Both the position numbers and the translations under genes were made by a program. Shown here piece by piece: positions 45,578 to 62,300 of a stretch of DNA of 64,000 nucleotides; within the stretch, counting starts at the first letter, position 1; each line of letters starts with the position of its first letter. This DNA comes from an uncultured Gemmatimonadaceae bacterium (lineage in GTDB: Bacteria; Gemmatimonadota; Gemmatimonadetes; Gemmatimonadales; Gemmatimonadaceae). The notes under the pieces were generated by a model that saw only the letters and a list, made by a program, of their open reading frames with translations, was not told the origin of the DNA and searched no databases. Location: assembly GCA_963822945.1 (NCBI GenBank), contig CAWGJO010000036.1, positions 60,897 through 124,896 on the forward strand, given 5' to 3'.

Positions 45578-45606
45578 AATGGGAATGATTACACCCATTC
45601 TGGGAA
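45571..45606. promoter_or_regulatory. Tandem palindromic operator sites at the MNT start
   Basis: ttcccataatgggaa (45571-45585) and cccattctggg (45594-45604). Confidence 0.6.
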
Positions 45607-45769
45607 TTGTGCAAGCCAGAGCGTTCTGTGCCATGCAGGCCACCTTGGCCCCTCGCCTCCGGCGTCATGTCACCATTCGAACGCCGGCCGAAGCATACCT
45701 CGCACAGTGACCGAACCGGTAGGAAATGGGCGCCTGCGACCGCAACGGCGCGGACGATTGCGTTGGGAG

Positions 45770-47913
45770 TTACACGAGCTTCCCAATCGGCAGCTTCCGC
45801 ACCCGCTTCCCCGTAAGCGCGAAGATCGCATTCCCCACCGCCGGCGCGATGGGCGGCGTGGCCGGCTCACCTGCCCCGCCCTGCGCATCGGTGCTCGGCA
45901 CGATGTGCACCTCCACCACCGGCATCTCGGCCATGCGCAGCATGCGGTACTTGTCGAAGTTCCCCTCGACGATCCGCCCGTTCTCCACGTGCACCTCGCC
46001 CCAAAGCGCCGCCGTCAGTCCGTACACGATGGCGCTCTGCATCTGCGACTCGACGATGGCCGGATTCACCACCGGCCCGCAGTCGATGGCGCACACCACC
46101 TTGTGCACGCGCACGCTGCCGTCGCCCGCCACACTCACCTCGGCCACCTCGGCCACGTAACTCTGGAAGCTCAGGTGCACGGCGATCCCCCGCGCGTGGC
46201 CCGTGGGGAGCGGCGTGCCCCACCCCGCCTTCTCGGCGGCCAGTTCCAGCACGCGCTTGTGCCGCGGCGAGTCGCCCAGCAGGCCGCGGCGGAACTCGTA
46301 GGGATCCTTTCCGCGGCGTGCGCCAGCTCGTCCACGAACGTCTCCACCGCGAAGCCGTTGTACGAATTGTTCACGGAGCGCCAGAAGCCCACGGGGATTC
46401 CCGTGTCCACGTTGTGCGAATCGACGAGCACGTTGGGAATGGCGTACGGCATCGCCATCGCGCCCTCCACCAATTCCGGGTCGTAGCCGTGGTCCAGCGT
46501 CTCTGGCCAGAAGCGCACCATCGAACTCTGCGCCGTCACGCGATGCGTCCAGAGCACCGGCTTGCCGCCGGCCTCGATTCCACCCCGGAACTGGTGGCGC
46601 GAGGCGCATCTATAGAAGTCGTGCTGCGTGTCGTCCTCGCGCGAGTAGATCACCTTCACCGGCGCCTTCATCGCCTTGCTCGCCTCCAGCGCGTCGGTGA
46701 CGAAGTCGAGTTCCACGCGCCGCCCGAAGCCGCCGCCCAGGTAGGTGGTGTGCACGTTCACCTTGCTCTGCGGCACGCCGCCGATCCTTGCGCCGAGCTG
46801 CTGCACCCAGGTCTGGAGCTGCGTGGGCGCCCAGATGTCCACACCGTCGGCGCGCACGTGGGCCGTGCAGTTCATCGGCTCCATGGTGGAGTGCGCGAGC
46901 AACGGAAGCTCGTACACCGCCTCCACCGTCTTCGCGGCGCGCGCCGATTCGGGATGTCCCTTCTTCAGCGCCGTGTGCCCCGGCTTCTTGGACCGCTCGG
47001 CGTACAGCGCCCAGATGCTCTCGGTGCTGGCGTGGGCGTTGGGGCCGTCGTCGAACTCGACGCTCAGCGCGGCGCGGCCCTTGTGGGCGGGCCAGTAGCC
47101 GTCGGCCACCACGGCCACCCCGTTGGAGATCTGCACCACGTCGCGCACGCCGGGCACCGCCCTGGCCTTCGCGGCGTCGAAGCTCTTCACCTTGCCGCCG
47201 AACACCGCCGGCCGCGCGACCAGCGCCACGAGCATGCCCGGCACCTTGACGTCGATGCCGAACTCCGCGCTCCCGTCCACCTTGGCCGGCGTGTCGAGCC
47301 GCTTGGCCGGCGTGCCGACGATCTTCCAGTCCTTGGCGGGCTTGAGCGGCACGGCTGTTGGAAGCGGCAGCTTCGAAGCGGCTGCCGCCAGGTTGCCGTA
47401 GCTGACCTTCCGGTTGGTCGGCGTGTGGATCACCGCGCCCAACTCGGCGCGGCATTCGGAGGCGTCCACCTTCCAGCGCGCGGCGGCTGCCGCAATGAGC
47501 ACCTCGCGGGCCGCGGCGCCGGCCTGGCGCAGCGGCGTGAAGGCGACGCGCACGCTGCTGCTGCCCCCCGTGCCCTGCGCGCCGAAGTCCGGGTTGTAGT
47601 ACACCTCGGCGGCGGGGGCAAACTCGATGCCGATGTCGTTCCAGTCGGCCTCGAGTTCCTCGGCCAGGAGCATGGGAAGCGCGGTGGCCACGCCCTGTCC
47701 CATCTCACTGCGGTCCACGAGCAGCGTGATGCTGTCGTCGGTGCCGATGCGGATCCAGGCGTCGAGCGGTACGGACGGACCGGAGTGGCCGATGATCGTC
47801 GGTTCGCACCCGGTGGCGCTGAACGAGAATCCGATGAGCAGGCCGGCGCTGACCACGGCCGAGGCTTTGACGAAATCGCGGCGCGAGACCTCGCGCGAAC
47901 GGGGAGTGGTCAT
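45770..47913 (-). CDS. Xanthine dehydrogenase-family molybdopterin-binding subunit (IorB-like), Tat signal; frameshift near 46310
   Basis: [26 protein letters not shown] and GFWRSV; the second frame gives [13 protein letters not shown]. Confidence 0.92.
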
Positions 47914-48743: not shown

Positions 48744-49520
48744 GTGACTCGGTACCGGCAGCTCGCGCGATCGACGTTCGCGGTGGGGATGATGGGCACC
48801 GGCGTCCTGCCGCTCGTGTACGGATACAAGGTGCTCCTGTTCCAGCCGGTGCCGGCGTGGGTTCCGTCGCCGCAGACGCTCGGGCTCGTTGCCGGCGTCC
48901 TGATGATCGCCACGGGCGCCGGGTTGCTGTTCGAGCGAACGGTGCGCGTGTCCGTTCGCGTGCTGCTCCCCTTCCTGCTGCTCTGGACGCTCACCCGGGT
49001 GCCGGCGGTGTTCGCGCAGCCGCTGCGCGAGATCAGCTGGTTCGCCATCGGTGAGGTGGCGGTGCTCGCCGCCGGGGCGCTGGTGATCTTCGTGCAGTTC
49101 GCGGGGCTGCGGGAGGGGTCGGGGCTGCAGGTGGCGATGGCGAAGCACGGCCTGCGCACCGCATGCGTTCTGCTGGGCCTCTCGCTCGTGACCTACGGTC
49201 TCTCGCACTTCTTCGAGTTCAGACTCCGGACCATTTCGCTTGTGCCCGCGTGGCTGCCCTTCCGCGCGGAGTGGGCCTACCTGGCCGGCGCCGGACAGGT
49301 GGCGTGCGGACTCGGCCTGGTGTTCGGGGTGTATCCGCGTCTCGCGGCGGCCACCGAAGCGGCGATGTTGAGCCTGTTCACCGTTCTCGTATGGGTGCCG
49401 GCGGTGGTCAGCAAGCCGGGGGTGACCTCCAACTGGGTGGAGGGTGTCGTCACGGCGGCGCTGGCGGGGGCGGTGTGGGTGGTGGCGGAGGGGATGCCGG
49501 CTGCGCGACAGGGGCACTGA
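48744..49520 (+). CDS. DoxX-like multi-pass membrane protein
   Basis: Duplicated VPAW.P...AYLAG...G pattern; about 8 TM helices. Confidence 0.75.
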   Translation: MTRYRQLARSTFAVGMMGTGVLPLVYGYKVLLFQPVPAWVPSPQTLGLVAGVLMIATGAGLLFERTVRVSVRVLLPFLLLWTLTRVPAVFAQPLREISWFAIGEVAVLAAGALVIFVQFAGLREGSGLQVAMAKHGLRTACVLLGLSLVTYGLSHFFEFRLRTISLVPAWLPFRAEWAYLAGAGQVACGLGLVFGVYPRLAAATEAAMLSLFTVLVWVPAVVSKPGVTSNWVEGVVTAALAGAVWVVAEGMPAARQGH

Positions 49521-49583
49521 CAAACGAAACGCCCGCCGCAGTTTCGCGGCGGGCGTTCGCAGTAGAGCATGCACCCAGCAAGT
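49520..49583 (-). ncRNA. Predicted anti-tRNA small RNA, module 1
   Basis: Starts ACTTGCTGGGTGC (49583-49571), perfectly complementary to the anticodon arm of tRNA 49634-49717. Ends in a terminator (stem 49528-49539 / 49546-49557, then a T-rich tail). Confidence 0.75.
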
Positions 49584-49589
49584 ACTTGG

Positions 49590-49618
49590 AGAGTATCGCG
49601 TCCACGGTGCCGAGTCAA
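49590..49618 (-). promoter_or_regulatory. Sigma70-like promoter TTGACT-N17-TACTCT for anti-tRNA 1
   Basis: Same -35, spacing and 6-nt distance to the antisense start in all four modules. Confidence 0.75.
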
Positions 49619-49633
49619 TGACTTTGGCGGCCG

Positions 49634-49717
49634 TGCCCGGAGCGGGATTTGAACCCGCACGCCCTTTCGGGCACACACTTGCTGGGTGCGCGTGTCTACC
49701 ATTTCCACCATCCGGGC
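49634..49717 (-). tRNA. Leu-type (class II) tRNA body with AGC (Ala) anticodon and C33; no encoded CCA
   Basis: GCCCGGA-TG-GTGG AAATGGTAG ACAC-G-CGCAC CCAGCAA GTGTG-TGCCCGAAAGGGCGT-GCGGG TTCAAAT CCCGC-TCCGGGC-A. Confidence 0.88.
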
Positions 49718-49983
49718 ACGTGAACGAGGATGGCGGAAGAGGGTCGACCACCCGGCAAGTCACTCCTCGCTACCCGGCGGAACCTTACCGCGTAAGAGGA
49801 GTGACATCGTCGCCGTAAGAACCCCAGGGGGAGCAGAATGTCGCATTCCACTCCACCGCGACCTCAAGGCCCGGCGGAGTGGTGCGGGTAGAAGATGAAA
49901 CTGACTCCGAGGCCGATCAATCCGCCGGCAGTTGCGCCCACGGCGATGGTGAACGGCACGACGAATGCAATCCGGCTCGGCAT

Positions 49984-50523
49984 TCAGCCGAAGATCTCGC
50001 GCACCGCGATCGTCAGCGCTTCGCGTGCGCCCGCCGGGTGCCACACCACCGCGTCGTCCACCGTCCGGTCCTCGTGGCCCGGCCGCACCACGGTGACGGC
50101 CTCGCGTTCCGGATCCACGATCCAGTATTCCGGAACTGCCTGCGCCAGGTAGAAGTCGCGCTTGTGCTGGCGATCGCGACGTCGGGTGGACGGAGACAGC
50201 ACTTCGACGATCAGGCTGGGGAGCGGCATGTCGCTCCATTCCGTGCCCTTCTGTGGCGGAGGCCGGCGCACCATCAGGTCGGGCTCCACCTCGGACCCGG
50301 CAATCCGCAGCACCGCGCGCGGATGGTAGACGAAGCCGAGCCCCTGGGCGGCGACGAACGGTTCGAGCAGTCGAGTGAGCCGGGCGAGAACCGTCTCGTG
50401 ATCCACGTTCGGCGGCGGCGTCACGAACAGTTCGCCGTCGATGAGCTCGTACTTGTTGCCGTCGTCCGGCAGGCTGTGGAGCTCCTCGAGCGTCCACTGT
50501 TTGGTGGTTGGCGCCATCGGCAT
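49984..50523 (-). CDS. Uma2-family (PD-(D/E)XK) endonuclease-like protein
   Basis: YELIDGEL, VEPDL, VEVLSPST...D...K..FY and VPEYWIVDP motifs. Confidence 0.92.
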   Translation of the reverse strand: MPMAPTTKQWTLEELHSLPDDGNKYELIDGELFVTPPPNVDHETVLARLTRLLEPFVAAQGLGFVYHPRAVLRIAGSEVEPDLMVRRPPPQKGTEWSDMPLPSLIVEVLSPSTRRRDRQHKRDFYLAQAVPEYWIVDPEREAVTVVRPGHEDRTVDDAVVWHPAGAREALTIAVREIFG

Positions 50524-50723
50524 GGCCGGTCCTTCCTCGGCAAAGGGTGTCTCGCGAGCATGCGCCGAGCATACACGCCGCGAGCGGAACGCCCTCACCG
50601 TTGTGTTGCGCTCCGCGTCATCCCGTCGCATCGCGGGAGACAGCCGAGCATATGCTCGGCTAGGCGGCCGAGTCAATGGGAAGGCGCTGCGGTGCCGTGT
50701 CCGGAGCGGATCGAACCCACCCC

Positions 50724-53700
50724 CTACGGCTGGATCGCCACCTCCACCCCCTGCGCCTTGAGCCGCGCGTTGAACGCGGGCACGGTCTTGCTCGTGAACT
50801 CATCGAGCGACTTCCGCGACGACGCCATCCACGTCTTGAAATAGTCGTTGACCGCGACCTCGCCGGCCGTGGGTCCCAGGTCGGCCTCGTCCTTGTCGTA
50901 GAGCGCGGTCAGCTTCTGGTAGAGCTGGCTGGGAAAGCGGTTCAGATCCTCGTTGCCGTCGGTGAGATGCACGTCGATCAGCTTGCCCTCGATGGCGATG
51001 GCCTCGTCGGCCAGCTTGCGCGACTCGGCCACCACGCCGCGGTGCGCCGCGTCGCCGCGGTAGCGCATGCTCGAGGTCGGCGAGCTGCTTCCGCACCCAC
51101 TCCAGCTGCTCGATCATGTTCGACACGCTGTCGATCTCGCGCTCCAGCCCCAGCTTGAACTGCAGCTGCGCCCGCATGCTGGCCGCGGTGCCGAGCGACG
51201 CAGGGTCGGCCAGCACCCGGAGCGGCTGCGACTCGGTCGCGCCGCCGGCGTCGAGCTTCACCGTGTAACTGCCGGGCGTCACGCGGGGACCGGTCACGGT
51301 GCCGGGAATCATGATGCCGGTGAGGATGTGGTAGCCCCCGGGACCGTTGGGCACCCAGGGCGCGTCGGGGGGCGGCACCAGCATGTGCGGCATGGCGCCG
51401 TTGGGATAGCGCAGGTCCCACCACGCGCGGTTGAGCCCCTCCGCGCCGCGCACGTGCAACGTGTTGATGGTCCTGCCGTCGGCACCGGCGATGGTGATGG
51501 TGGCCGGGCCGGCGTGCGCGAGATAGAAGTTGATGTCGGCGCCGTACGGCGGGTCCTGCCCCACCACGCGCGCGCCGGGCTCGGCGAGCCGCCGGTCGCT
51601 CTTCTGCCGGAAGCGGTACGCCGCCCGCAGCGGGATAGAGCGCCGCCGCCTTCGCGCCGGGGTCGTAGTGCCGCAGGGCGGTGATGTCGTCCATGATCCA
51701 GTCGCCGCGCCCGTAGGTGGCGATCACCAGATCGTTGAAGCGCGGCTGGACGGTGATCCAGTAGACCGGCGCCGGTGGCAGGTTCTGGTTGAGCTTTGTC
51801 CAGTTGCCGCCGTCGTTCCAGCTCACGTATATCGCGTTGTCGGTGCCCAGGTAGAGCATCCCCTTGCGCACGGGATCTTCGACGATGCAGTGCGCCGAGC
51901 TGTTGTACCCCTTGGGCACGCCCGCGCTGATCATCGTCCAACTCCGGCCGTAGTCGGCGGTCTTGTAGACGTAGGCGTCGTAGTCGCCCATCTGCTCCAG
52001 GTTCACCGTGATGTAGGCGGTGCCGGCGTCGAAGGGCGACGGATCGATGTTCCAGATCGTGCCCATGGGCTTGAGGTCCGGGAATGTTCTTCGTGACGTT
52101 GGTCCAGTGCGCGCCGCCGTCGCGGGTGAGGCTCACCTGCCCGTCGTTGGTGCCCGCCCAGATGACGCCCTGCTTCACCGGCGACTCGGCGATGGAGAAG
52201 ATCAGTGCCGCGTCGTAGGTGTAGAGGTTGTCGTGCGTGATGCCGCCGGAGTTCCCCTCGTGCGCCTTGTCGTCGAGCGTGAGGTCGGGGCTGATCGTCT
52301 TCCAGCTCTGCCCGCCGTCGGTGGTCTCGTGCACGTACTGGCTGCCCACGTACACGCGGTTGTGGTCGAAGGGGGAGATGGCGAGCGGGATCGTCCAGTC
52401 CCACCGGTACTTCACGTCGCGCGGCGCCCAGCCATCGTCCACGTCGGGCCACACGCTCACGTCGCGCGCCTGCCCGTCCTTCATGTTCATGCGGCTGATC
52501 ACACCCTCGTAGCACCCCGACCAGACGATGTCGGGATCGGTGGGGTCGGGCGTCGCGAACCCGCTCTCGCACCCGCCCACCGCCTTGAAGTCGCCGGCGG
52601 TGATGCCGCCGCCAAAGCCGCCGCGCCCCGCGAGGTTGTTGCTGGGACCCACGAAACTCGACGCGTCCTGCAGGTTGCCGTAGATGTCGTAGGGAATCCG
52701 GTCGTCGGTGCTGACGTGATAGACCTGCGCGATGGGCAGCCGGATGTGCTCGAAGGTGCGGCTGCCGTCGAGACTCACCGAGAGCCCGGCGTCGTTGGCC
52801 ACGAGAATGCGGTTCGCATTGTCGGGATCGATCCAGATGTCGTGGTTGTCGCCGCCGGCGGAGCCGAAGCCGTTCCCTCGGCCGGGGCGCAGGAAGGTCT
52901 TGCCGCCGTCGAGCGAGATGGTGTAGTTAGGGCTCACGAAGTACAGGCGGTCGGGATCCGTGGTGGAGACGCCGAAGTTCGTGTAGTACGAGTCGCGCTG
53001 CAGCATCATGTGGTCGTGGCTGACCATCGTCCAACTGGCGCCCGCGTCGTCGGAGCGGTAGAGCGTGGGCTGGCTGTCCTGCACCAGGGCGTACCAGCGC
53101 GTGGGGAGGCTGTGCGCGATGGCGACCGCGACCTTGCCCACCACGTGCGGGGCCGCGGGCAGCCCGTGCCCCGAGAGCTGCGTCCACGTGTCGCCGCCGT
53201 CGCGGCTCACGTACATGCCGCCGTCGGGCCCGCCGCTGTCGAGATTCCAGGGATACACGCGCACCTGCCACATGCCGGCGAACAGCGTGTTGGGGTCGGC
53301 CGGGTCCATGGCCAGGTCGTTGCAGCCGGTGTCGCCGTTGGGGCCGAGCACCAGCTTCCACGTCTTGCCGCCGTCGAGCGTGCGGTAGACGCCGCGCTCG
53401 GGCTGTGCCTTGAAGAGCTGGCCCAGCGCGCAGACGAACACGCGCTGCGGGTCGTGCGGGTCGATCACGATGTGGCCGATGTGGCCGGTGGCGTCGAGGC
53501 CCATGTGCTCCCAGTGCTCGCCGCCGTCCATGGACTTGTAGACGCCGTCGCCCATGGGATAGTAGGGACGGATGAGCCAGGTCTCGCCCGTGCCGGCCCA
53601 CACCACGTTGGGGCTGGACTGCGACACCGCGAGCGCGCCCACGGCCGAGACGTCTTCGTGATCGAACACGGGCCGCCAGTCGACGCCGCCGTTCTCGGTT

Positions 53701-53966
53701 TTCCAGATGCCGCCCGAGGCGGCGCCGACGTACATCACGGCCGGGTCGCCCGCCACGCCCGCCGCCGCGGCAGCGCGGTTGCCGTACGGGCCCACGAAGC
53801 GCCAGCTCATCTCACCGAGCGGTCCGAGTGACGCGGCGGCTGCTCCGCGTCCAATGCCGCGCTGGGCGCGTGCAGGGGCCGGCGCCAGCGCCAGCGATGC
53901 AAGGATGAACGGCGCGAGGACCAGCGCGGTGCCCCTCGACGCGAATCGCGACTGCGGCGTGCTCAT
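50724..53966 (-). CDS. VPS10/sortilin-like BNR-repeat (sialidase-fold) secreted protein; frameshifts near 52075, 51635 and 51068
   Basis: Many S.DGG.TW Asp-box repeats; GAASGGIWKT, DNHDIWID, IATYGRG and GLNRAWWDLRY across frames. Confidence 0.9.
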
Positions 53967-54170
53967 GCGGATGTCTCCTGGATCGGCGCGCGGGCGGGGG
54001 GCCGTGACGACGGTGCCGATGGGAGCGAGGGATGTCAAGGCGGGAGGAGATGATCCGGCCAGCGGGGAATCGGTCCCGGGACTTCAATTCACTGAGCGTA
54101 CGCTTCCCCGCGAGGTAGCGGAGAGCGTCTTGTCAGGCTGTCGATCCAGTTCCGGCACATCTGCGCACGT

Positions 54171-54254
54171 GCCCGGGTGGCGGAACTGGTAGACGCGTGT
54201 GTCTGGTAAGCACATGCTCGCAAGAGCGTGCGGGTTCGAATCCCGCTCCGGGCA
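54171..54254 (+). tRNA. Leu-type tRNA body with GGT (Thr) anticodon; no encoded CCA
   Basis: GCCCGGG-TG-GCGG AACTGGTAG ACGC-G-TGTGT CTGGTAA GCACA-TGCTCGCAAGAGCGT-GCGGG TTCGAAT CCCGC-TCCGGGC-A. Confidence 0.9.
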
Positions 54255-54270
54255 CGGCCTCACCAATCTG

Positions 54271-54300
54271 TTGACTCGGCGAGGCTGGCCGGCTATCAAT
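54271..54300 (+). promoter_or_regulatory. Sigma70-like promoter TTGACT-N17-TATCAA(T) for anti-tRNA 2
   Basis: Same position as in the other modules; weaker -10. Confidence 0.6.
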
Positions 54301-54304
54301 CAGA

Positions 54305-54370
54305 TGCTTGCCAGACACACCAGTTCCGCCAAACCGCCCGCAGCCTTCCTGGCCGCGGGCGGTTTCTCTT
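54305..54370 (+). ncRNA. Predicted anti-tRNA small RNA, module 2 (targets anticodon arm and D-arm)
   Basis: 54305-54320 pairs with 54197-54212 (16 nt, one G.U); 54319-54330 pairs with 54179-54190; terminator stem 54331-54341 / 54355-54365. Confidence 0.75.
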
Positions 54371-54417
54371 CGACGCCCACCTTGCCGCTCGGGCGACCGG
54401 CATCCATAATCGGGGCC

Positions 54418-55998
54418 ATGAATTCCAACATTCGCCACTGGATGCGCCTGCCCTCGGCTTCGCTTGCGATGCTGTTGCTGGCGGCGATGCCGTTGGCCGC
54501 GCAGGGGCGCGGTCGCGGCGGCCCGGGCCCGCAAGGGCACCCCTACGATTCGAGCACCACCGACGCACCGCCGGTGGTCACCCATCATACCATTCAGGTG
54601 GGCGGCAAGACCTACGCCTACACGGCCACGGCGGGACGACTGCCGGTGCCCGATGCGACGGGCAAGACCGAGGCCCACATCTTCTTCGTGGCGTACACGC
54701 TGGACGGGCAGAAGGACGCGAGCCAGCGTCCGCTGTCGTTCATCTACAATGGCGGGCCGGGCGAGCCGGCCATCTGGGTGCACGTGGGCGGGTTCGGTCC
54801 CAAGCGCATCGTACTGCAGAGCAACGGCGCGCTGCCCCCGCCGCCCTACAAGATGGTGGACAACCAGGAGACCTGGCTGCCGTTCACCGACATGGTGTTC
54901 ATCGACCCCGACGGCACCGGCTACAGCCGCGCCGTGTCGGAGAAGGCGCTCTCCGCAACCTCTGGGGTGGCGGGCGACCTGCAGTCGCTGGGCGAGTTCA
55001 TCCGCCTGTACCTCACCAAGTACGATCGGTACAGCTCGCCGCTCTATCTGGCGGGCGAGAGCTACGGCACGTTCCGGTCGGCGGGGCTGGCGGGATACCT
55101 GGCGCAGCGCGGCATCGCGCTGAACGGCGTGATGCTGCTGTCGAGCGTGCTCGACATGCAGACGCTCAGCGAGTCCACCGACAACGACCTGCCGAACGTG
55201 CTGTTCCTGCCCACGTACACGGCCACCGCCTGGTACCACAAAAAGCTGCCGCCCGACCTGCAGAAGCTCTCGCTCAAGGAGGCGGTGGCGCAGTCGGAGC
55301 ACTGGGCGACCACGGAGTACATGCACGACCTCTATGAGGGTGACGCGCTGCAGGGCGCCGAGCGGCAGCAGGCCGTTGCCCAGATGGCGCGCTATACCGG
55401 CCTGCCGGCCAAGCTGATCGACGACTACAACCTGCGCGTCAGCTCGTCGCTGTTCGACGCGACGCTGCTGCAGGGGCAGAAGGAATCCGTCGGGCGGCTG
55501 GACGGCCGCATGGTGAGCTTCAACCGCACGCCCGGCACGCAGCGCAACGACTTCGACCCCAGTTGGGTGCAGCGCCCGGTGTACACGCAGATGTTCACGC
55601 AGTACGTGCGCGACGACCTGGGCTACAAGACCGACGACGTGTACGGGGGCGGCATCGCGGGGTGGAACTTCGACGGCTACGGCAACAACATGAGCCAGTT
55701 GCTGGAGAGCGCCTTCGCCAAGAACCCGTACATGAAGCTGCTGCTGGCCACGGGCTACTACGACTTCGCCTGTCCGTTCTTCGAGGCGGAATACAGCATG
55801 CACCATCTCTTCCTGCCGCCGGATCTCCAGAAGAACATCACGGTGACGCATTACGAGGTGGGGCACATGATCTACCAGGACGACATCGCGCGCAAAGCGC
55901 TGGAGAGCGACGTGCGGACTTCATCGCCAACTCCGATCACGCGAAGGCGATGGATCTCGAGCCGAGATAGAGGAGCCGGGCGAGCCGCTGCTGAATAA
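54418..55998 (+). CDS. Peptidase S10 (paralog of 17005..18558); possible frameshift near 55915 with true stop at 55970
   Basis: YNGGPG, GESYG, GYYDFACP and GHMIY motifs. Confidence 0.92.
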   Translation: MNSNIRHWMRLPSASLAMLLLAAMPLAAQGRGRGGPGPQGHPYDSSTTDAPPVVTHHTIQVGGKTYAYTATAGRLPVPDATGKTEAHIFFVAYTLDGQKDASQRPLSFIYNGGPGEPAIWVHVGGFGPKRIVLQSNGALPPPPYKMVDNQETWLPFTDMVFIDPDGTGYSRAVSEKALSATSGVAGDLQSLGEFIRLYLTKYDRYSSPLYLAGESYGTFRSAGLAGYLAQRGIALNGVMLLSSVLDMQTLSESTDNDLPNVLFLPTYTATAWYHKKLPPDLQKLSLKEAVAQSEHWATTEYMHDLYEGDALQGAERQQAVAQMARYTGLPAKLIDDYNLRVSSSLFDATLLQGQKESVGRLDGRMVSFNRTPGTQRNDFDPSWVQRPVYTQMFTQYVRDDLGYKTDDVYGGGIAGWNFDGYGNNMSQLLESAFAKNPYMKLLLATGYYDFACPFFEAEYSMHHLFLPPDLQKNITVTHYEVGHMIYQDDIARKALESDVRTSSPTPITRRRWISSRDRGAGRAAAE

Positions 55999-56055
55999 GA
56001 GAACGCCCGCCGCGAGAAGCGGCGGGCGTTCGTACTACGGGTGCACCTGGTAAGT
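55994..56055 (-). ncRNA. Predicted anti-tRNA small RNA, module 3
   Basis: Starts ACTTACCAGGTGCAC (56055-56041), a perfect 15-nt complement of the anticodon arm of tRNA 56107-56190; terminator stem 56001-56013 / 56019-56031. Confidence 0.78.
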
Positions 56056-56061
56056 AAATGA

Positions 56062-56090
56062 AGGATACGGCGACCAAGACGCCGAGTCAA
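56062..56090 (-). promoter_or_regulatory. Sigma70-like promoter TTGACT-N17-TATCCT for anti-tRNA 3
   Basis: Read directly; conserved spacing. Confidence 0.78.
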
Positions 56091-56106
56091 CGAATTGATG
56101 AGGCCG

Positions 56107-56190
56107 TGCCCGGAGCGGGATTCGAACCCGCACGCTCTTCCGAGCATGCACTTACCAGGTGCACGTGTCTACCAGTTCCACCATCCGGGC
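56107..56190 (-). tRNA. Leu-type tRNA body with GGT (Thr) anticodon; no encoded CCA
   Basis: GCCCGGA-TG-GTGG AACTGGTAG ACAC-G-TGCAC CTGGTAA GTGCA-TGCTCGGAAGAGCGT-GCGGG TTCGAAT CCCGC-TCCGGGC-A. Confidence 0.9.
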
Positions 56191-56316
56191 ACGTGAACGA
56201 GGATGGTGGAAGCGGCCAGAAGGCGATTCTACTCCGGCCCGAGCGCCACGCCCCGAAGTACCTCGGCGACAGCGCGCCGTGGGCTCACGGGATCATATCC
56301 CGGCCCGGAATGCTCC

Positions 56317-57435
56317 CTAGCGGCGATCGCCCGAGGTCGGACGCGCCAGCGGGCGCACGTGCTGCACCAGATCGAGCAGCACCACGCCTGGCGCTTCGTT
56401 CACCACGTAGTGCGCCGCGTGGTCGATCTCGAAAAAGGTCTTGGCCGGGGCGTGGATGCGGTCGAAATAGGCCTTCGCCTCGCTCTCGGGCGTGGTGCGA
56501 TCTTCCTTGCCCGCGAAGATGAACACCGGCGTGCGAAATACCGTATCCGCGTCGAAGTCGGTGGCGGCCATCGCCGGCAGCAGTGCCTTGACCGAAATCC
56601 CAATGCCGAGAATCGCCGACGTGTCGTCATACGCGGTGTAGTCGGGACTCAACTGCCAGGCGTCCGAACTCTGGTCCCGCGACTTGCCGTAGAGCATGCC
56701 GCCGAGCGCCACGTCCCACCGCCGCTCGATGATGATCTTGTCCATCGAGAGCGGCCGGCCGGGGTCCGGATAGGGCGCGAGCGCCTCGAGCGCCCGCACG
56801 GCCGAGTCGTTCCCCACGCGCCGGGCCTCGGCCAGCGTCTGCCGGTAGCCGACGACCTCGTTGCGCATTCCGTTGACCACCTGGCCCACGCCGATGTAGG
56901 CGTACAACCATTCGGGGCGGGCCTGCGCCACGCGGAGCCCCAGGATGCTCCCCCACGAATGACCCATCAGGAAGATCTTCTGCTTGCCGTACCGGTGCCG
57001 GAGCGAGTCCACCAGGGCTTCGGCGTCGGCCTGCATCCGATCGATGGTCAGATGCGGGTCGGGCTTGCGACCGGCGGCCGAGAAGGTCTTGCCGGCGTTG
57101 CGCTGGTCCCACTGCACCACGGTGAAGAAGTCCTCCCACGGCCGCTCGAAGGTCCAACTCTCGGGCATCATCGGAGACCCCGGCCCACCGTGGATGAACA
57201 GGAGAATCGGATTGGACGGGTTCGCTCCGCGAACGCTGATCCACTGCTTGATTCCGCCGATCTCCAGCGCCATCAGCGTGTCGATGCCGCCCGGCGGAAG
57301 CGCGAGCGCGCGCGCGATGATCGTCCGCGGGTCGTTGGGCCGCCCGGTGGCGGCCGCGGCGCGTTGGGCGCCCAGAGCGACGGGAAGGGAAAGTGCCGCA
57401 ACGAACGCGGCGACCGTCTGCCGACAACCGCGCAT
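56317..57435 (-). CDS. Alpha/beta hydrolase (proline iminopeptidase-like)
   Basis: HGGPG, WDQRNAGK, GHSWG, GKED and AAHY motifs. Confidence 0.92.
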   Translation of the reverse strand: MRGCRQTVAAFVAALSLPVALGAQRAAAATGRPNDPRTIIARALALPPGGIDTLMALEIGGIKQWISVRGANPSNPILLFIHGGPGSPMMPESWTFERPWEDFFTVVQWDQRNAGKTFSAAGRKPDPHLTIDRMQADAEALVDSLRHRYGKQKIFLMGHSWGSILGLRVAQARPEWLYAYIGVGQVVNGMRNEVVGYRQTLAEARRVGNDSAVRALEALAPYPDPGRPLSMDKIIIERRWDVALGGMLYGKSRDQSSDAWQLSPDYTAYDDTSAILGIGISVKALLPAMAATDFDADTVFRTPVFIFAGKEDRTTPESEAKAYFDRIHAPAKTFFEIDHAAHYVVNEAPGVVLLDLVQHVRPLARPTSGDRR

Positions 57436-57574
57436 GGTTACTCCCCTCGGGCGATGGGTGGGTTCAGGTCCTTAACCGCGCTCGGCGCACGCGCGGCGGC
57501 AAGGTAATGCCTGCGGACGCTCCAGTCCACGTGACGTGACCCCCGAAGGCTGATCCAGATTGGAGGCGCCGGCC

Positions 57575-57740
57575 AACCACGCGGGGCTGGGTTCGTTGGC
57601 GACGATCGCCCTGCGACGTCCGCGGAATCTGGCGATCGTAGTGCTCGACAACGCGCGCTGCGGCGAGACCGGCATGCAACCGAGCCACACCGCGGGGCCG
57701 GCGAAGCTGGTGGAGAGTGTTGCCGGAGCGGGATGGCGGA
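57575..57740 (+). pseudogene. Fragment of a TPP-dependent enzyme (ComE-like decarboxylase beta subunit)
   Basis: GLGSLATIA...PRNLAIVVLDN...GETGMQPSHT without the upstream GDG motif or N-terminus. Confidence 0.6.
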
Positions 57741-57809
57741 GAAGCTCAAGCAGCGGTTTCGGGCTGGGAATAGCGGCCGGCGTCGACCGCCACCTCGAGG
57801 ATCGGGCCC

Positions 57810-59057
57810 CTAGAACGCCTCCACGTAGGCCACCTCTCCGTGGAGCGCGCTGTCCAGCCCCTCCGTCTCCCCGGCCTCGTCCACCTTGACGGTCGTGACC
57901 CGGTCGATGACCCAGAGCATGCCATATGTGAACACGAACGCCCAGACCGACGACAGGCAGACGGCGCCGAGTTGGACGAGGAAGAAGTGCGCATTCCCGT
58001 GGATGAGGCCGTTGGTGCCCGACGGATTGATGGCGAGCGAGGCGAACACGCCGCACAGGAGAATGCCGATGAATCCGCCCACGCCGTGCACGCCCCACAC
58101 GTCGAGCGCGTCGTCCCAGCGCAGCCGGTTCTTCAGGGCCACGGCGTAGAAGCACACCACGCCGGCCACCAGCCCGATGACCACGGCCGACTTGGGTGAC
58201 ACGTAGCCCGCCGCCGGCGTGATCGTGGCCAGCCCCGCCACGGCGCCCGTGAGCAGGCCCAGGAACTTGGGCTTCCGCGTGGTCATCCAGTCCATGGCCA
58301 GCCAGGCGATGCCGGCAAAGCTGGCCGCGAGGTCGGTGTTGACGAACGCCACCGCCGTCACCGCATCGACGCGGAACTCACTGCCCGCGTTGAAGCCGTA
58401 CCAGCCGAACCAGAGCAGTCCCGTGCCCAGCGCGACCAGGGGAATGGAGTGCGGCCCCCGGTCGACCACCTTGCGGCGTCCCACGTAGAGCACCGACGCC
58501 AGCGCCGCGATGCCGGCGATGTTGTGCACCACGATGCCGCCCGCGAAATCGAGCACGCCCCAGTGCGCCATGATCCCGCCGCCCCAGACCATGTGGACGA
58601 ACGGGAAGTAGACCAGGGTGAGCCAGGCGGTGAGAAAGAGCATGTACGCGGGAAAGCGCACGCGGTTGGCGAACGCGCCCGTGATCAGCGCCGGCGTGAT
58701 GATGGCGAACATCATCTGGTAGCCGAAGAAGACGATGAGCGGAATCGTCGGGTTGGCCGGCGACGCCATGTCGAGCGACACGCCGCGGAGGAACGCCCAG
58801 TGGAAGTTGCCGATGATCCCGGCGAAGTCGGTGCCGCGGCGCATCGTACCGCTGAAGCACATGGAGAAGCCGAAGGCCCACCAGAGCACCGTGGTCCACC
58901 CCATGGACACGAAGCTCTGCATCATGATGGCGAGCACGTTCTTGCGACCCACCAATCCGCCGTAGAAGAAGGCGAGGCCGGGGGTCATGAGCATGACGAG
59001 GCTGGAGCACAACAGCATGAACCCGGTATTGCCGGTGTCGATGGCCAGGTGTTGCAT
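57810..59057 (-). CDS. amt: Ammonium transporter
   Basis: MTPGLAFFYGG, DFAGGIVVH, LWFGWYGFNAGS and DDALDVWGVHG motifs. Confidence 0.96.
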   Translation of the reverse strand: MQHLAIDTGNTGFMLLCSSLVMLMTPGLAFFYGGLVGRKNVLAIMMQSFVSMGWTTVLWWAFGFSMCFSGTMRRGTDFAGIIGNFHWAFLRGVSLDMASPANPTIPLIVFFGYQMMFAIITPALITGAFANRVRFPAYMLFLTAWLTLVYFPFVHMVWGGGIMAHWGVLDFAGGIVVHNIAGIAALASVLYVGRRKVVDRGPHSIPLVALGTGLLWFGWYGFNAGSEFRVDAVTAVAFVNTDLAASFAGIAWLAMDWMTTRKPKFLGLLTGAVAGLATITPAAGYVSPKSAVVIGLVAGVVCFYAVALKNRLRWDDALDVWGVHGVGGFIGILLCGVFASLAINPSGTNGLIHGNAHFFLVQLGAVCLSSVWAFVFTYGMLWVIDRVTTVKVDEAGETEGLDSALHGEVAYVEAF

Positions 59058-59179
59058 CAGGGGCGCTCCTGAAGGCGGGATGGTCGCGCGGAATCGCGAC
59101 TAACGTGGAGCCGGGGCCAGGGGGGCGCAATGGAGGGGCGGCGCGGCCGGCCTGATGGAGGTCCAGCCAGACTCCATGG

Positions 59180-59244
59180 CCGAAACCCAGAACGCCCGCC
59201 GCGGTAGGCGGCGGGCGTTCTGGGTTACAGCGCACTCGACAAGT
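59180..59244 (-). ncRNA. Predicted anti-tRNA small RNA, module 4
   Basis: Starts ACTTGTCGAGTGCG (59244-59231), a perfect 14-nt complement of the anticodon arm at 59338-59351; 19-bp terminator stem 59184-59202 / 59208-59226. Confidence 0.75.
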
Positions 59245-59250
59245 AAGAAG

Positions 59251-59279
59251 ACGCTATTTCGAACTCGGCGCCGAGTCAA
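59251..59279 (-). promoter_or_regulatory. Sigma70-like promoter TTGACT-N17-TAGCGT for anti-tRNA 4
   Basis: Read directly; conserved spacing. Confidence 0.75.
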
Positions 59280-59294
59280 GCGGTATGGAGGCCG

Positions 59295-59371
59295 TGCCCG
59301 GAGCGGGAATTGAACCCGCACACTCTTTCGAGCGCGCACTTGTCGAGTGCGTGTGTCGACCAGTTCCAACA
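59295..59371 (-). pseudogene. 5'-damaged Leu-type tRNA with GAC (Val) anticodon and C33
   Basis: TG-TTGG AACTGGTCG ACAC-A-CGCAC TCGACAA GTGCG-CGCTCGAAAGAGTGT-GCGGG TTCAATT CCCGC-TCCGGGC-A. The 5' acceptor strand is replaced by TAACCGC, which includes the addA stop codon. Confidence 0.82.
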
Positions 59372-59375
59372 GCGG

Positions 59376-62300
59376 TTAAGTACGCGCGAAGTAACGCGCG
59401 GCCACATACGCACGCCACCCCCGCAACCTCCCCACCAACGCCTCGACATCCCCCTCGGCCCCCACCTCAACCCCCACCCCCGCCGGCACCGTCAGCAACG
59501 TGAACGACACCTCCCCCCCGCCCCCAATCGCCCGCACGGCATCCGTGTACGTCGCCGCCTGCACCGCATAGCGCTCCGCAAGCACGTCGGCATCGGCCCC
59601 GCTGGTCTTCACGTCCAACACCCGCACGGCGTCGCCATCCCTCGCCACCAGGTCCAGCGCGCCGTTGATGGTGGTGCCATCCGCGAACAGGCGCGTGAAC
59701 GGCAGCTCCCGCCGCGCCGACGGCAGGTTGGCGACGGACTGCCATACAGGCGACGCGGTGGCCGCGTCGATCCGCGCCCGCACATAGGCGCGATACGCGA
59801 TGCCCGCGGGATCATCCGGCTCTGGCGCGTCGCTGTCGTGGTCGGCAATGGCATCCTCTATCAATTGCGCGAGATCCACCCCCTCGGCTTCGAGCCGCTC
59901 CAGCACCTCGTGCACGATGAGGCCGGTGGCGATCGCGTTGGCCCCCGCGCGGCTCAACCCGCCGGGAGCCGCGCCGTCGAACCGAAGGACGTACTGGTCC
60001 CACCACCGCGCGGGGTCGTGGTCGAACGCCATCAACTGCGACGCCGACAGCCGCAGACTCCCGGTGGGCACATCGACCGGCGTCGGCGGCAACGGAAGTT
60101 CCAGTTCGGCCACCTGGCCCGCGTCCGCCTGGGCCGCGCGCCCATCACAGAGGGTGACCGCGGCGTGGTACACGGTGCCCGCATGACTCTGGTACTCCAC
60201 GTCGGCGCCTGCCTCGATGCTCGGGAACGCCTCGCGCAACATCGTCGCGGGCGACCGGTTGCCGCGGCCCTGCGTGCCCAGCGGAATACCGCTGAGCACC
60301 AGGCGATGCTTGGCCCGCGTGGCCGCCACGTACCAGAGCCGGTACGACTCGGCGCGCTGCTCCAGCGCCAATGCATCCGCCAACTCCCTGTGGCCGGCGT
60401 CGGCCGGCTTTCCATCCTCGTCGACCAGTGACTCGTCCTGCACAGAGAACCGGTCGCGGCCAACCAGGTACTTGCCGCTGGTGAACGTGACATCACGCAC
60501 CAGGTCACACCAGAACACGGTGGACCACTCCAGCCCCTTGGCACTGTGAATGGAGGTGATGGTCACGACATCCGAACGCTCCCGATACAGGCGCTCGGGC
60601 GCCACACGGTCCTCCCGGTCGCGCTGGGCGGCAATCTCCCGCAGGAACTCGCCCAACGACTGATCGGGCGCCGCAGCAGCCATGCGCACGAGCTTGCGCA
60701 CATTGGCCACGTGCTGCTGCCCGTCGTCACCGTCGAGCGCGATGGCCGCCACGAACCCCGACTCGTGAAGCAGGCGGCCGAGCAGTTCGTGCACGCTCAC
60801 GCGATCGCGCAGCGCGCCGAGTGTCGTCAGCAACTGCTGCGCGCGGTCCAGCAGATCCCGCTCGCGCTGGACCCGTCCGAGCCCGTCCGCGAGGCCGGCG
60901 CCATGGCTCTCGAGGGCCAGGGCCAGCAGCGTGTCGTCGCGCACGCCGACGAACGGACTCTTCAGGAACCCGGCCATCGCCACGTCGTCCCGCGGATCGC
61001 GAATGGCGCGCAACGCGAGCACGCAGTCGAGCACCTCACGGGCCTGCCAGAACCCCTCGGAGCGCAGCACGTAACTCGGAATCCCCGCCTGCTTGAGCGC
61101 GGCTTCGTACTTGGCAACCGCGCCCCAACCGGCGAGCAGGATCGCCATGTCGCCGTACGCCACGCCCTCGTCATGCAATTCGGTCATCCGCCGGGCCACG
61201 CCCGCCGCTTCCAGATCCCGCACTTCCTCCGCCTTGCGCGTCTTTCCGTCGTCCGCAGCGGGGACCACCAGGAACTCCACGGCGTGGTCGCCCTCGGCGC
61301 CATCGGCTCGCGCATCGAGAGGCGCATAGCCCACCTCGAAGGGACGCCGCTGGCCGTCGTCCGCTACCGGCTCGTCGAGCTTCCTGCCCACGGTCGCGTC
61401 CACCATTCCCAGAATCGCGGCCTTGCTGCGGAAGTTCTCCCCGAGCGGCAGCACCTTGCCCTGCCCGTCGTCGAACTGCCCGGCCACCTCGTTCCACAGC
61501 GTGACGTCGGCTCGGCGGAACCCATAGATGCTCTGCTTGGGATCGCCCACGAGTATGATGCGGGTGGGCTCGGGGTCGGACGCCCCGATGCCGGCCAACA
61601 GATAGGCGATATCCCGCTGCACCGGATCCACATCCTGAAACTCGTCGAGCACCAGCAGGCGCACGCGGTGCTGCACGGCCCTGCGAACCGCGTCGTTGCG
61701 CAACAGCTCGCGCGTTGCCGCGATCATGAGATCGAAGTCGAGCACGCCCTCGCGGTCCAGCCGTTCGCGCCGCAGCGCCGCGGCCCGCGTGGCGACGGTC
61801 AGCAGCGCCAGCTCGTGGGGGCGCAGCGCGCCTGAGCCGGCCGCCAACCGCGCCAGCCGGTCGGTGTCTTCCGACGCGCTCGCCACCCACTGGGTGATGT
61901 CTTTGAGCCTGCGCCCGCTCAGCAGTTCGTCCAACCCGGGCACGTCGCCGGCGTCGATGGCGTTGCGCAGTGCTTCGTGCGCGCTCTCGACGGCCAACTC
62001 CGCGCCCTCGCCCTCTTCCACCACCCGGCGTCCCGGCGCCGTTCCCGCGCGCAGCGCGAAGTCGCGCAGCAGGTCGCCGCAGAATCCGTGGATGGTGCCG
62101 ATGCGCGCCGAGTCCACCTCGGCGGCGAGTTCACGGCGCTCGCCCGCACGCAGCGCGGCTCGCAGCTTGCGCTTGAGATCGGCCGCCGCCTGGTTGGTGA
62201 AGGTGATGGCCGCAACCTGATCGAACGACAGCGGCGCGGGCACGGGAGACAGCGCAACCCCGTCGACGATCACGGGAACGCCGAGATAGTGGCAGAGTGC

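Follow-up and report, generated by a model that had tools for sequence, protein, structure and literature searches.

The window considered here, a stretch of 64,000 nucleotides from an uncultured Gemmatimonadaceae bacterium (contig CAWGJO010000036.1, positions 60,897 to 124,896, of assembly GCA_963822945.1; G000 below), carries four modules, M1 to M4, in which a leucine-type tRNA-like gene is followed by the gene for a predicted small RNA that is antisense to the anticodon arm of that same tRNA. The sequence was read directly and the coordinates were checked by script, which bore out the positions and strands that an earlier note on this stretch had given for the four modules. That note had counted four copies; a fifth, degenerate one at ~50640-50735 (-) had been overlooked, and blastn finds no copies beyond these in the 3.97-Mb assembly of 45 contigs. 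As developed below, the tRNA may be a missense tRNA that is held in check by antisense RNA both in cis and in trans.

Organization of the Modules

All parts of a module lie on one strand, and run from a type II tRNA-like gene with A73 and no encoded CCA, through a TTGACTCGGC box and a -10 hexamer, to a seed and a terminator. The CGGCC that was said to follow the tRNA does so throughout the window and varies in relatives (CGACC, CGCCC). Box and hexamer make up P2, the putative promoter of the small RNA, which has the form TTGACTCGGC-N13-TAnnnT; the hexamer, 17 nt past TTGACT, reads TACTCT in M1, TATCAA in M2, TATCCT in M3, and TAGCGT in M4. The seed starts 5-6 nt past this hexamer and is antisense to the anticodon arm of its own copy, over 13 nt exactly in M1 (anticodon AGC), 16 nt with one U:G pair in M2 (GGT), 15 nt in M3 (GGT), and 14 nt in M4 (GAC). 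The predicted small RNA is ~60 nt long, with the seed at its 5' end and a GC-rich hairpin with a U-rich tail at its 3' end. The places of the modules are as first described, and each reaches ~75-110 nt further upstream than had been proposed, taking in a conserved leader and a likely promoter.

M1, on the minus strand, has a Leu-type (type II) tRNA at 49634-49717 with anticodon AGC, loop CCAGCAA (hence C33), A73, and no CCA. Its leader (49718-49776), which is backed by the predicted fold and by covariation on A2, an alignment of 22 full modules, contains an anti-arm segment, GACTTGCCGGGTG (49749-49761), and an anti-5' segment, TTCCGCCATCC (49728-49738). A -10-like hexamer, TAAGGT (49782-49787), picked out by eye and not in the consensus scan, is presumed to belong to a weak upstream promoter, P1. 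P2 (49590-49618) consists of TTGACTCGGC at 49609-49618, a 17-nt spacer, and TACTCT at 49590-49595, and is followed by the small RNA (49521-49584) with its seed ACTTGCTGGGTGC (49571-49583) and a terminator hairpin at ~49526-49559.

M2, the only module on the plus strand, begins with a presumed P1 hexamer, TACGCT (54099-54104), suggested by conservation, and a leader (54110-54170) with anti-arm segment GTCTTGTCAGGCTG (54127-54140) and anti-5' segment TTCCGGCAC (54150-54158). The Leu-type tRNA with anticodon GGT (54171-54254) is followed by P2 (54271-54299), in which TTGACTCGGC (54271-54280), a 17-nt spacer, and TATCAA (54294-54299) are found, the final T of the -10 hexamer being missing. The small RNA (54306-54370) has a seed at 54306-54321 with one U:G pair, a terminator at ~54331-54367, and a 13-nt anti-D-arm stretch (54319-54331) that is an exact match to TGGCGGAACTGGT.

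In M3 (minus strand), unrelated sequence takes the place of P1 and of the 5' half of the leader. Only the 3' part of the leader is left (56191-56211), including the anti-5' segment TTCCACCATCC (56201-56211); the leader of the ortholog in G001 (L002) is complete. The Leu-type tRNA, with anticodon GGT, lies at 56107-56190, P2 at 56062-56090 (TTGACTCGGC 56081-56090, 17-nt spacer, TATCCT 56062-56067; 9/12 in the consensus scan), and the small RNA at 55995-56055, with seed ACTTACCAGGTGCAC at 56041-56055 and terminator at 56001-56031.

M4 (minus strand) has a 5'-truncated tRNA remnant (59295-59368) with anticodon GAC and the arm CGCAC TCGACAA GTGCG, upstream of P2 (59251-59279; TTGACTCGGC 59270-59279, 17-nt spacer, TAGCGT 59251-59256) and a small RNA (59181-59244) with seed ACTTGTCGAGTGCG at 59231-59244 and terminator at ~59186-59224. 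Thus the leader is full in M1 and M2, reduced to about its last 21 nt in M3, and not recognizable in M4. Because the 5' acceptor strand of M4 has been replaced (homology runs from ~59368) and neither ARAGORN nor Rfam calls a tRNA there, M4 is, judging by its sequence, a dead tRNA beside an intact small-RNA unit; M1 to M3 are recognized by both programs.

The fifth unit (50640-50735, approximately; minus strand) was located by an nhmmer match, its sequence, and the promoter scan. It consists of a T-arm remnant (50701-50718), TTGACTCGGC (50667-50676), an 18-nt spacer, and TATGCT (50647-50652), and neither a seed nor a terminator is recognizable in it. This P2-like promoter (TTGACT, 18 nt, TATGCT) adjoins or overlaps the listed start of a Uma2-family open reading frame (ORF) at 49984-50676 (-). 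Possibly, a promoter that once served a small RNA now drives this nuclease gene.

Pairing of the Small RNA With the Anticodon Arm

In every complete module the tRNA and small-RNA genes are adjacent, and the complementarity between them is cognate-specific and covaries. Among 30 unique complete modules from 14 genomes (G000 and 13 relatives), cognate duplexes have a mean energy of -34.1 kcal/mol (sd 4.9), vs. -19.2 kcal/mol (sd 6.2) for non-cognate ones, and none of 10000 permutations reached the cognate mean. The cognate small RNA ranked first to third for all tRNAs, ties being orthologs. On A2, 97.4% of the arm:seed cells are paired and 13 of 16 pairs are changed on both sides, compared with 31-42% paired in slid controls, and RNAalifold itself pairs the arm with the seed in this alignment. 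The test that the earlier note had asked for, covariation of anticodon arm and antisense in homologous modules, thus came out in its favor, as did its impression that the pairing follows each copy's own arm and is under selection.

The mismatches in these duplexes are also informative. The duplex cores contain 451 Watson-Crick pairs, seven wobbles of a tRNA U with a small-RNA G, and one position of the A:C type. This asymmetry points to pairing of these very strands at the RNA level and would be unexpected for an inverted repeat maintained at the DNA level. Taken alone, the small RNAs are predicted to leave the 5' end free and to form a strong hairpin, with z scores from -4.4 to -6.8 (M1 -4.4, with a 14-bp hairpin; M4 -6.8). 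Outside the tRNA arm and the small-RNA gene themselves, the genome has no site within one mismatch of a seed target except for three one-mismatch sites, two for the M1 seed target (on contigs C20 and C27) and one for that of M3 (on C4).

The same arrangement is found beyond these genomes, and metagenomic loci confirm the pairing independently. At least 121 metagenomic loci match the specific pattern described below, from which 42 unique modules were parsed, the others being short of flank, without a D-arm anchor, or duplicates. Among these 42, 38 have a -10 hexamer, and 37 of the 38 have a cognate run of 11-21 nt; the four without the hexamer have runs of only 5-6 and look like chance matches. 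A module from a third family, in G027, has another acceptor stem and the same plan, with an 18-nt seed containing one U:G pair and a 10-nt D-loop match. An anti-D-arm stretch is present as well in the small RNAs of one subfamily, to which M2, L006, L013, and many copies from metagenomes belong.

The Leader and the Two Promoters

Alignment of relatives brought out a conserved leader of ~65 nt upstream of the tRNA, with the consensus GAGGTAGCGAGGAGnGACTTGYCAGGTGGTCGACCCnCTTCCRCCATCCTCGTTCACGT. Most of the listed modules have a TAnnnT-type hexamer ~75 nt before the tRNA and a (G/A)TGACG-like box ~19 nt further up, which are presumed to form the weak promoter P1; the hits of the consensus promoter scan do not include P1. 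All 22 aligned modules agree in the TTGACTCGG of P2 and in the TA of its -10 hexamer, and the 17-18-nt spacer is variable. From this pattern we infer an asymmetry between a consensus-like, strong P2 and a poor P1, from which the small RNA and the tRNA precursor would be transcribed separately. As no terminator lies between the tRNA and the small-RNA gene, the transcript from P1 should run on to the shared terminator.

The leader has two complementarities to the tRNA that follows it. One is formed by UUCCRCCAUCC with tRNA nt 5-14 (96.5% of cells paired on A2, with four of nine pairs compensatory; for example, a D-stem U to C change is matched by A to G in the leader), and the other by ACUUGYCAGGUG with the anticodon arm (84.7% paired, 10 of 12 pairs changed on both sides). 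In the 42 metagenomic modules, the anti-5' pairing was reached in none of 10000 permutations; the anti-arm pairing is weaker, with 67 of 10000 permutations reaching the observed value. A helix within the leader (columns 23-28 with 63-68) is 89.4% paired, with four of six pairs changed, and competes with the anti-5' pairing. When leader and tRNA are folded together, both leader pairings replace the cloverleaf in the minimum-energy fold of all three modules folded (M1, M2, and L002), and in the predicted fold of the M3 read-through transcript the arm pairs with the downstream seed in cis.

By covariation and predicted folding, then, the leader is a second, cis-acting anti-tRNA that locks the precursor, which makes neutralization likely in cis as well as in trans. 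The proposal that an antisense small RNA neutralizes the tRNA is thereby kept as far as the selected cognate pairing goes and extended by a cis-acting element that it had missed. Two other leader features were considered and dropped. A hairpin of columns 40-44 with 57-61 is paired in 72.7% of cells, the same as in shuffles. A small leader ORF (GGAG, TTG, and a stop at the TAA of the GGT-type anticodon loop) has CTG or nothing in place of the TTG in several modules, and its stop is present in some loops only. In addition, an Rfam search at E up to 1 over 49300-59600 returned only sub-threshold noise for the leader and small RNA, with no family.

These results bear on the view that the modules have no function and are decaying tRNA-Leu pseudogene repeats, whose inverted repeat is kept by template switching or gene conversion at the DNA level. 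Quasi-palindrome correction can homogenize inverted repeats and could keep these perfect, and many copies are indeed degenerate. However, mismatches maintained in this way would not be expected to be strand-asymmetric (seven U:G vs. one A:C); compensatory changes preserve the cloverleaf, including stem positions beyond the repeat; the promoter hexamers are invariant amid variable spacers; three separate complementarities covary; and the architecture is preserved across three families. We therefore regard this view as extremely improbable.

tRNA Identity and Anticodon Repertoire

The module genes are at present annotated as tRNA-Thr, tRNA-Ala, or tRNA-Val, in keeping with their anticodons. ARAGORN calls M1 tRNA-Ala(agc) and both M2 and M3 tRNA-Thr(ggt), and the Rfam tRNA model (RF00005) scores M3 at 56.5, M2 at 54.8, and M1 at 46.7 bits, against a cut-off of 29. 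The body is another matter, and here the Leu-type assignment made from the window holds up well: besides one another, the nearest tRNAs in the genome are its four tRNA-Leu genes (identity 0.71-0.80, vs. at most 0.66 for any other tRNA), A73 and the helix of the long variable arm are preserved in the 22-module alignment, and the D loop is identical to that of tRNA-Leu. The genome also has ordinary tRNA-Thr, tRNA-Ala, and tRNA-Val genes besides the four for tRNA-Leu. Encoded CCA occurs in only eight of the 57 tRNAs of this genome, so its absence from the modules is normal.

The tRNA fold itself is well maintained. For cloverleaf and terminator together, 98.4% of A2 cells are paired, 17 pairs are changed on both sides, and none of 500 shuffles was equal. 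Seven acceptor pairs (100% paired) and five T-stem pairs are all kept in the 22 modules. All five anticodon-stem pairs covary, and as two of them lie outside the duplex with the small RNA, selection acts on the tRNA fold itself. A wider set of 57 distinct arms gives 277 of 285 stem positions paired and A37 in every arm. As possible seed targets, the genome's ordinary tRNA-Thr, tRNA-Ala, and tRNA-Val were rejected, their anticodon stems being unrelated to those of the modules.

No Leu anticodon (NAG, YAA) occurs among the 57 arms. The anticodons are GAC (12), GGC (9), CGC (9), GGT (8), GTC (6), and GCC (6), followed by AGC, GGG, and CAC (2 each) and AGG (1), which by amino acid amounts to 20 Ala, 14 Val, eight Thr, six Asp, six Gly, three Pro, and no Leu. 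When the 61 sense codons are ranked by use in 1037 long ORFs of the window's genome, the targets rank first (GCC), second (GCG), third (GTG), fourth (GGC), and sixth (GAC), and then 15th, 18th, 24th, 42nd, and 52nd. Thus, of the ten anticodon types, five match codons among the six most used, and these five codons are the most-used ones outside Leu. The available part of one source states that leucyl-tRNA synthetase (LeuRS) does not read the anticodon (PMC11028032), and leucylation of these tRNAs, with decoding of Ala, Val, Thr, Asp, Gly, or Pro codons as Leu, would be the expected outcome.

ARAGORN also reports an identical 98-nt 'tRNA-Arg(gcg)' at two places in G000 (C11:13312-13409 and C42:2857-2954) and other over-long calls at C24:9779, C28:6525, C1:18644, and C22:57288. 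These over-long calls look like GC-rich false positives or a repeat on two contigs.

Decay and Change of Specificity

Loss of parts is one-sided. The genomes hold 51 unique units, 28 of which are complete, together with M2, which has a cognate seed and a terminator and fails the -10 rule only. A further 19 keep promoter, seed, and terminator with no detectable tRNA (one of the 19 at a contig edge), and three have neither tRNA nor small RNA. An intact tRNA without a cognate small RNA was found in none of the 51 units of this census, which was seeded on the small-RNA promoter box; a whole-module BLAST search of 41 genomes likewise found no tRNA-like copy without the box, except for one at a contig edge. 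The truncation point varies by copy, falling in the acceptor, anticodon loop, variable arm, or T stem, which indicates deletions around a retained small-RNA gene and not a site-specific event. For the same reason, the idea that the T-arm remnants are attachment sites of an island was ruled out. The M4 ortholog is intact in G001 (L035) and identically truncated in G006 (L047).

Orphan small RNAs can also be without a target. The two orphan seeds of G010, a genome that is 99% complete in four contigs, have no target elsewhere in it: the only 0-mismatch site of each is its own small-RNA gene, and sites with three mismatches are at about control level, except for one within another small-RNA unit of the cluster. 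Three species (G003, G006, and G010) share one conserved orphan seed. Complete modules with the matching GGG arm are present in metagenomes (L184, L185).

Between orthologs, specificity changes rapidly and in concert on both sides. M2 and its ortholog in G012 differ at none of 62 leader positions and at three of 66 in the tRNA body, but at seven of 18 in the arm and five of 17 in the seed (terminator, two of 33). The anticodon in this group is for Thr in M2, Asp in the G012 ortholog, and Val in other members. Averaged over columns, entropy amounts to 0.23 bits for the tRNA body, against 0.81 for the arm and 0.86 for the seed. One-sided decay, targetless orphan small RNAs, the absence of Leu anticodons from all 57 arms, and anticodons for common codons together lend indirect support to a toxin-antitoxin reading.

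These orphans could also suggest that the small RNAs are functional trans-acting regulators of mRNAs, for which the tRNA-shaped RNA would be a stable decoy or sponge, titrating its own small RNA much as the leuZ spacer described below titrates others. The persistence of orphan units with intact promoter, seed, and terminator would fit such a role, as would the conservation of an orphan seed in three species with no tRNA target in G010. However, a decoy could do without A73, a perfect acceptor stem, the D loop of tRNA-Leu in identical form, A37 in every arm, and a paired anticodon stem, and a chargeable missense tRNA would be costly to keep as a mere sponge. Moreover, a leader that masks the 5' end of the tRNA serves no sponge role, and the seeds have no other genomic site within one mismatch save the three on C20, C27, and C4. 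On these grounds a sponge is distinctly improbable.

Distribution and Genomic Neighborhood

For surveys of other genomes, a specific pattern was used, consisting of a T arm, 8-38 nt, and TTGACNCGGC. A looser scan of genome contigs, CGGGCACN{5,25}TTGACTCGGC, was discarded: its hits, at least 120 loci, are nearly all chance matches in unrelated phyla. The specific pattern occurs in 14 of 401 sampled genomes of the family, belonging to four of 77 genera, with no match for a reversed-pattern control, and in nine of 15 genomes of the window's genus beyond G000. Across the phylum it is present in four of 151 sampled genomes including G000; without G000, this is one of 31, one of 71, and one of two genomes in three families (f1, f2, and f3) and none of 46 in nine others. 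The viral contigs contain no pattern matches. As far as searched, then, the element appears sporadic and limited to one order of Gemmatimonadota, with its architecture preserved across the three families. With one whole module as query, BLAST on 41 related genomes turned up numerous copies in the window's genus, grouped in one and the same chromosomal region.

This occurrence is relevant to a rival explanation on which the modules are switches for regulated missense decoding, releasing, under some condition, small, useful amounts of a tRNA that inserts Leu or is otherwise charged; leader and small RNA would tune this release and have no part in addiction or abortive infection. It rests on the same structural evidence, and several observations suit it: the modules lie in a conserved chromosomal region of the genus; the signs of attenuation (C33 in 12 and A34 in three of the 57 arms, and the weak -10 of M2) fit a mild effector; and, according to the part of the source available, naturally occurring tRNAs can mistranslate with no toxic role known for them, as with tRNAProX (PMC11415595). 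However, the copies are patchy and fast-changing, as the counts for family and genus show, the tRNA is repeatedly lost with the small RNA retained, orthologs swap their target amino acid among Thr, Asp, and Val over short distances, and the anticodons aim at the most-used codons. Since patchiness, one-sided loss, target swaps, and this aim are more in keeping with a selfish or defensive element than with a housekeeping regulator, we consider regulated decoding unlikely.

The neighbors of the modules are chromosomal housekeeping genes, which is not the setting of a phage- or prophage-borne element. In the window they encode a DoxX protein, a Uma2-family nuclease, a sortilin/BNR protein, an S10 peptidase, an alpha/beta hydrolase, an ammonium transporter, and AddA/AddB-like helicase-nucleases. 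The same region in relatives (L031 in G012, L034 in G006, and L046 in G011) has genes for an Xre/MbcA/ParS antitoxin-like protein, a DUF4143/AAA_14 ATPase, a Schlafen group-3-like helicase, and a GNAT; this syntenic region has the look of a hotspot in which toxin-antitoxin and defence-type genes gather in varying sets. In other genera the neighbors are unrelated. Comparison of the window with the neighborhoods of its relatives found no protein gene shared by the modules, in agreement with what had been noticed in the window.

Such surroundings could be taken to mean that the tRNA-like RNA has a job outside translation and is kept off by antisense RNA; it might be a bait for anticodon nucleases or other tRNA-targeting toxins from phages or competitors, or an aminoacyl donor in a non-ribosomal reaction. 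The loops copy abundant cellular tRNAs at the anticodon and its neighbors only, with unrelated stems, as a bait might, and the region in relatives gathers the antitoxin-like, DUF4143 ATPase, Schlafen-like helicase, and Uma2 genes. However, no enzyme gene travels with the modules, and a bait needs neither neutralization by two antisense elements nor a diversifying arm:seed specificity. A role of this kind therefore seems very unlikely.

Three further observations concern the surrounding sequence. A promoter-like site (TTGCCG, 17-nt spacer, CATAAT) lies at 54382-54410 (+), between the M2 terminator and the S10 peptidase gene. A Polbeta/NTP_transf_2 nucleotidyltransferase ORF (MNT-like; 44969-45643, -) is found ~4 kb from M1, and no link to the modules was seen. 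A molybdopterin-binding subunit gene (45770-47913, -) is apparently split into two overlapping frames, one (46171-47913) with MoCoBD_1 and the start of MoCoBD_2 and the other (45770-46609) with the end of MoCoBD_2. Its counterpart in G010 is a single ORF of 712 aa (L033:5070-7208), and the split is possibly a frameshift or an assembly error.

Proposed Mechanism and Its Weighing

We propose that the module is a missense tRNA held by antisense RNA in cis and in trans, acting in the manner of a toxin-antitoxin system as an addiction or abortive-infection module, and consider this reading to be finely balanced between right and wrong. The module would be a self-contained, RNA-only gene pair, whose effector is a Leu-type tRNA with an anticodon for a common codon of Ala, Val, Thr, Asp, Gly, or Pro. 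The weak promoter would give a tRNA precursor in which the ~65-nt leader is base-paired to both tRNA nt 5-14 and the anticodon arm, preventing both the cloverleaf and processing by RNase P. With no terminator ahead, the transcript would continue through the small-RNA gene and so carry a perfect antisense in cis. The strong, consensus promoter directly after the tRNA would meanwhile produce the ~60-nt small RNA, whose single-stranded 5' end would pair with its cognate tRNA at nt 26-41 (and at the D arm as well in one subfamily), unfolding the anticodon arm so that decoding is blocked or the duplex is marked for cleavage. If the supply of small RNA dropped, through loss of the locus or a shut-off of transcription as in phage infection, matured tRNA would escape, be charged by the anticodon-blind LeuRS, and insert Leu at very common codons. 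Toxicity of this outcome, the relative stabilities of the two RNAs on which the escape would depend, and the trigger are what we infer from the design of the module. For a stable toxin with a labile antitoxin, the asymmetry of the two promoters is the one pointer.

Several points weigh against this reading. Position 33, near-universally U in tRNAs, is U in 45 of the 57 arms and C in 12, M1 included, and A34 occurs in three; such C33 or A34 copies, M1 among them, may decode weakly. ValRS, ThrRS, AspRS, GlyRS, and ProRS do read the anticodon, and these anticodon-reading synthetases might charge some module tRNAs with the matching amino acid, which would abolish toxicity. The GC-rich anticodons could mirror base composition or duplex stability and not the targeting of common codons. 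M2 has an intact tRNA beside TATCAA, in which the key final T is absent, an awkward combination if free tRNA is lethal; it is the only module of the window outside the TAnnnT rule, which 28 other units follow, and its G012 ortholog has TAGCGT. The unit census, being seeded on the small-RNA promoter box, may under-count tRNA-only copies, and all genomes are apparently assemblies of uncultured organisms. Finally, one metagenomic module, L286, combines an intact-looking tRNA with a non-cognate small RNA (a run of 5).

L286 is the sole non-cognate case among the 38 metagenomic modules with a -10 hexamer. Its GGT tRNA and its leader look intact and its seed fits another arm type (CAC), so that it may be a recombinant.

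Tentatively, and with a little more doubt than belief, the proposal can be carried further. The modules would then be all-RNA, programmable poison-antidote systems, in which a Leu-charged missense tRNA is directed against the host's most-used codons and is restrained by a masking leader and an anti-anticodon small RNA. The specificity of arm and seed would diversify so fast that neighboring modules are mutually orthogonal, addiction or abortive infection would be the outcome, and orphan small RNAs would provide immunity to incoming modules.

If these proposals are true, this would be the first tRNA to serve as the toxic effector of a toxin-antitoxin-like module, and the first natural small RNA dedicated to the anticodon arm of a tRNA. 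Genome-encoded missense tRNAs would be kept safely by RNA-only control, and a natural, sequence-programmable on/off switch for tRNAs would be relevant to genetic-code engineering. In addition, a protein-free class, invisible to annotation pipelines, would be added to the toxin-antitoxin and defence repertoire. Even without toxicity, leader, tRNA, and small RNA, with their three-way covariation, make up a new RNA element with testable base-pairing rules.

Comparison With Known Systems

The full-text literature searched, which leaves most subscription journals outside, yielded no description of a tRNA gene accompanied by a cognate antisense small RNA or by a masking leader. The closest resemblance in design is to hok/sok. 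There, a weakly expressed toxin mRNA for a membrane peptide stays inert by fold-back before processing, a short antisense RNA with a strong promoter, a single-stranded 5' seed, and a terminator hairpin acts as the antidote, and orphan or decayed chromosomal copies exist. The modules share the inert fold-back effector transcript, the short antisense from a strong promoter with a 5' seed, and decay of the effector first. However, their proposed toxin is a tRNA and not an mRNA, and no ORF is involved. The antisense gene of hok/sok overlaps the toxin gene on the opposite strand, whereas that of the modules lies downstream on the same strand and is also present in cis on the read-through precursor.

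Type VIII systems, such as SdsR/RyeA and CreTA, likewise have two RNA partners and RNA-mediated neutralization. Their RNA toxins pair with mRNAs or sequester a rare tRNA, and CreA works with Cascade on DNA. The modules differ in that the proposed toxin is a decoding tRNA, that no protein partner was found, and that arm and seed pair directly.

Two other RNA elements pair with tRNAs or their precursors. The T-box, which controls a downstream gene, contacts a folded tRNA through pairing with 3 of its nt and with the NCCA end, so that, as in the modules, an RNA element reads a tRNA through the anticodon and a second site. The modules, in contrast, pair over 13-21 nt, must unfold the arm, and flank the tRNA gene itself; they end in terminators and are not leaders of amino-acid genes, and the Rfam T-box model has no match at E up to 1 in 49300-59600. 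In E. coli, 3'ETS-leuZ, the 3' spacer of the leuZ tRNA precursor, titrates RyhB and RybB, and here too an RNA from a tRNA-Leu transcription unit pairs with small RNAs. In that case, however, it is the spacer that pairs, the tRNA is normal, and the small RNAs have mRNA regulons, whereas in the modules it is the tRNA that pairs.

Finally, the tRNAs themselves are most similar in kind to allo-tRNAs and tRNAProX, families in which, according to the parts of the sources available, a body of one identity carries diverse anticodons of other identities (PMC5389517; PMC11415595). The accessible portion of the former reports that expression of an allo-tRNA arrested and killed E. coli and that allo-tRNAs lie near toxin-antitoxin genes (PMC5389517). 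As these excerpts describe them, they have Ser or Pro identity and 8/4 or 9/3 acceptor/T arms or a dedicated ProRSx (PMC5389517; PMC11415595), whereas the modules have a canonical 7/5 type II cloverleaf with a Leu-like body and so lack both the allo-tRNA geometry and the Ser identity. No cognate antisense RNA or masking leader is reported for either family in the accessible text of these two sources, where the word 'antisense' occurs 0 times (PMC5389517; PMC11415595). Overall, we rate the element as new in its anatomy, and its proposed function would come nearest to the logic of type I and type VIII toxin-antitoxin systems.

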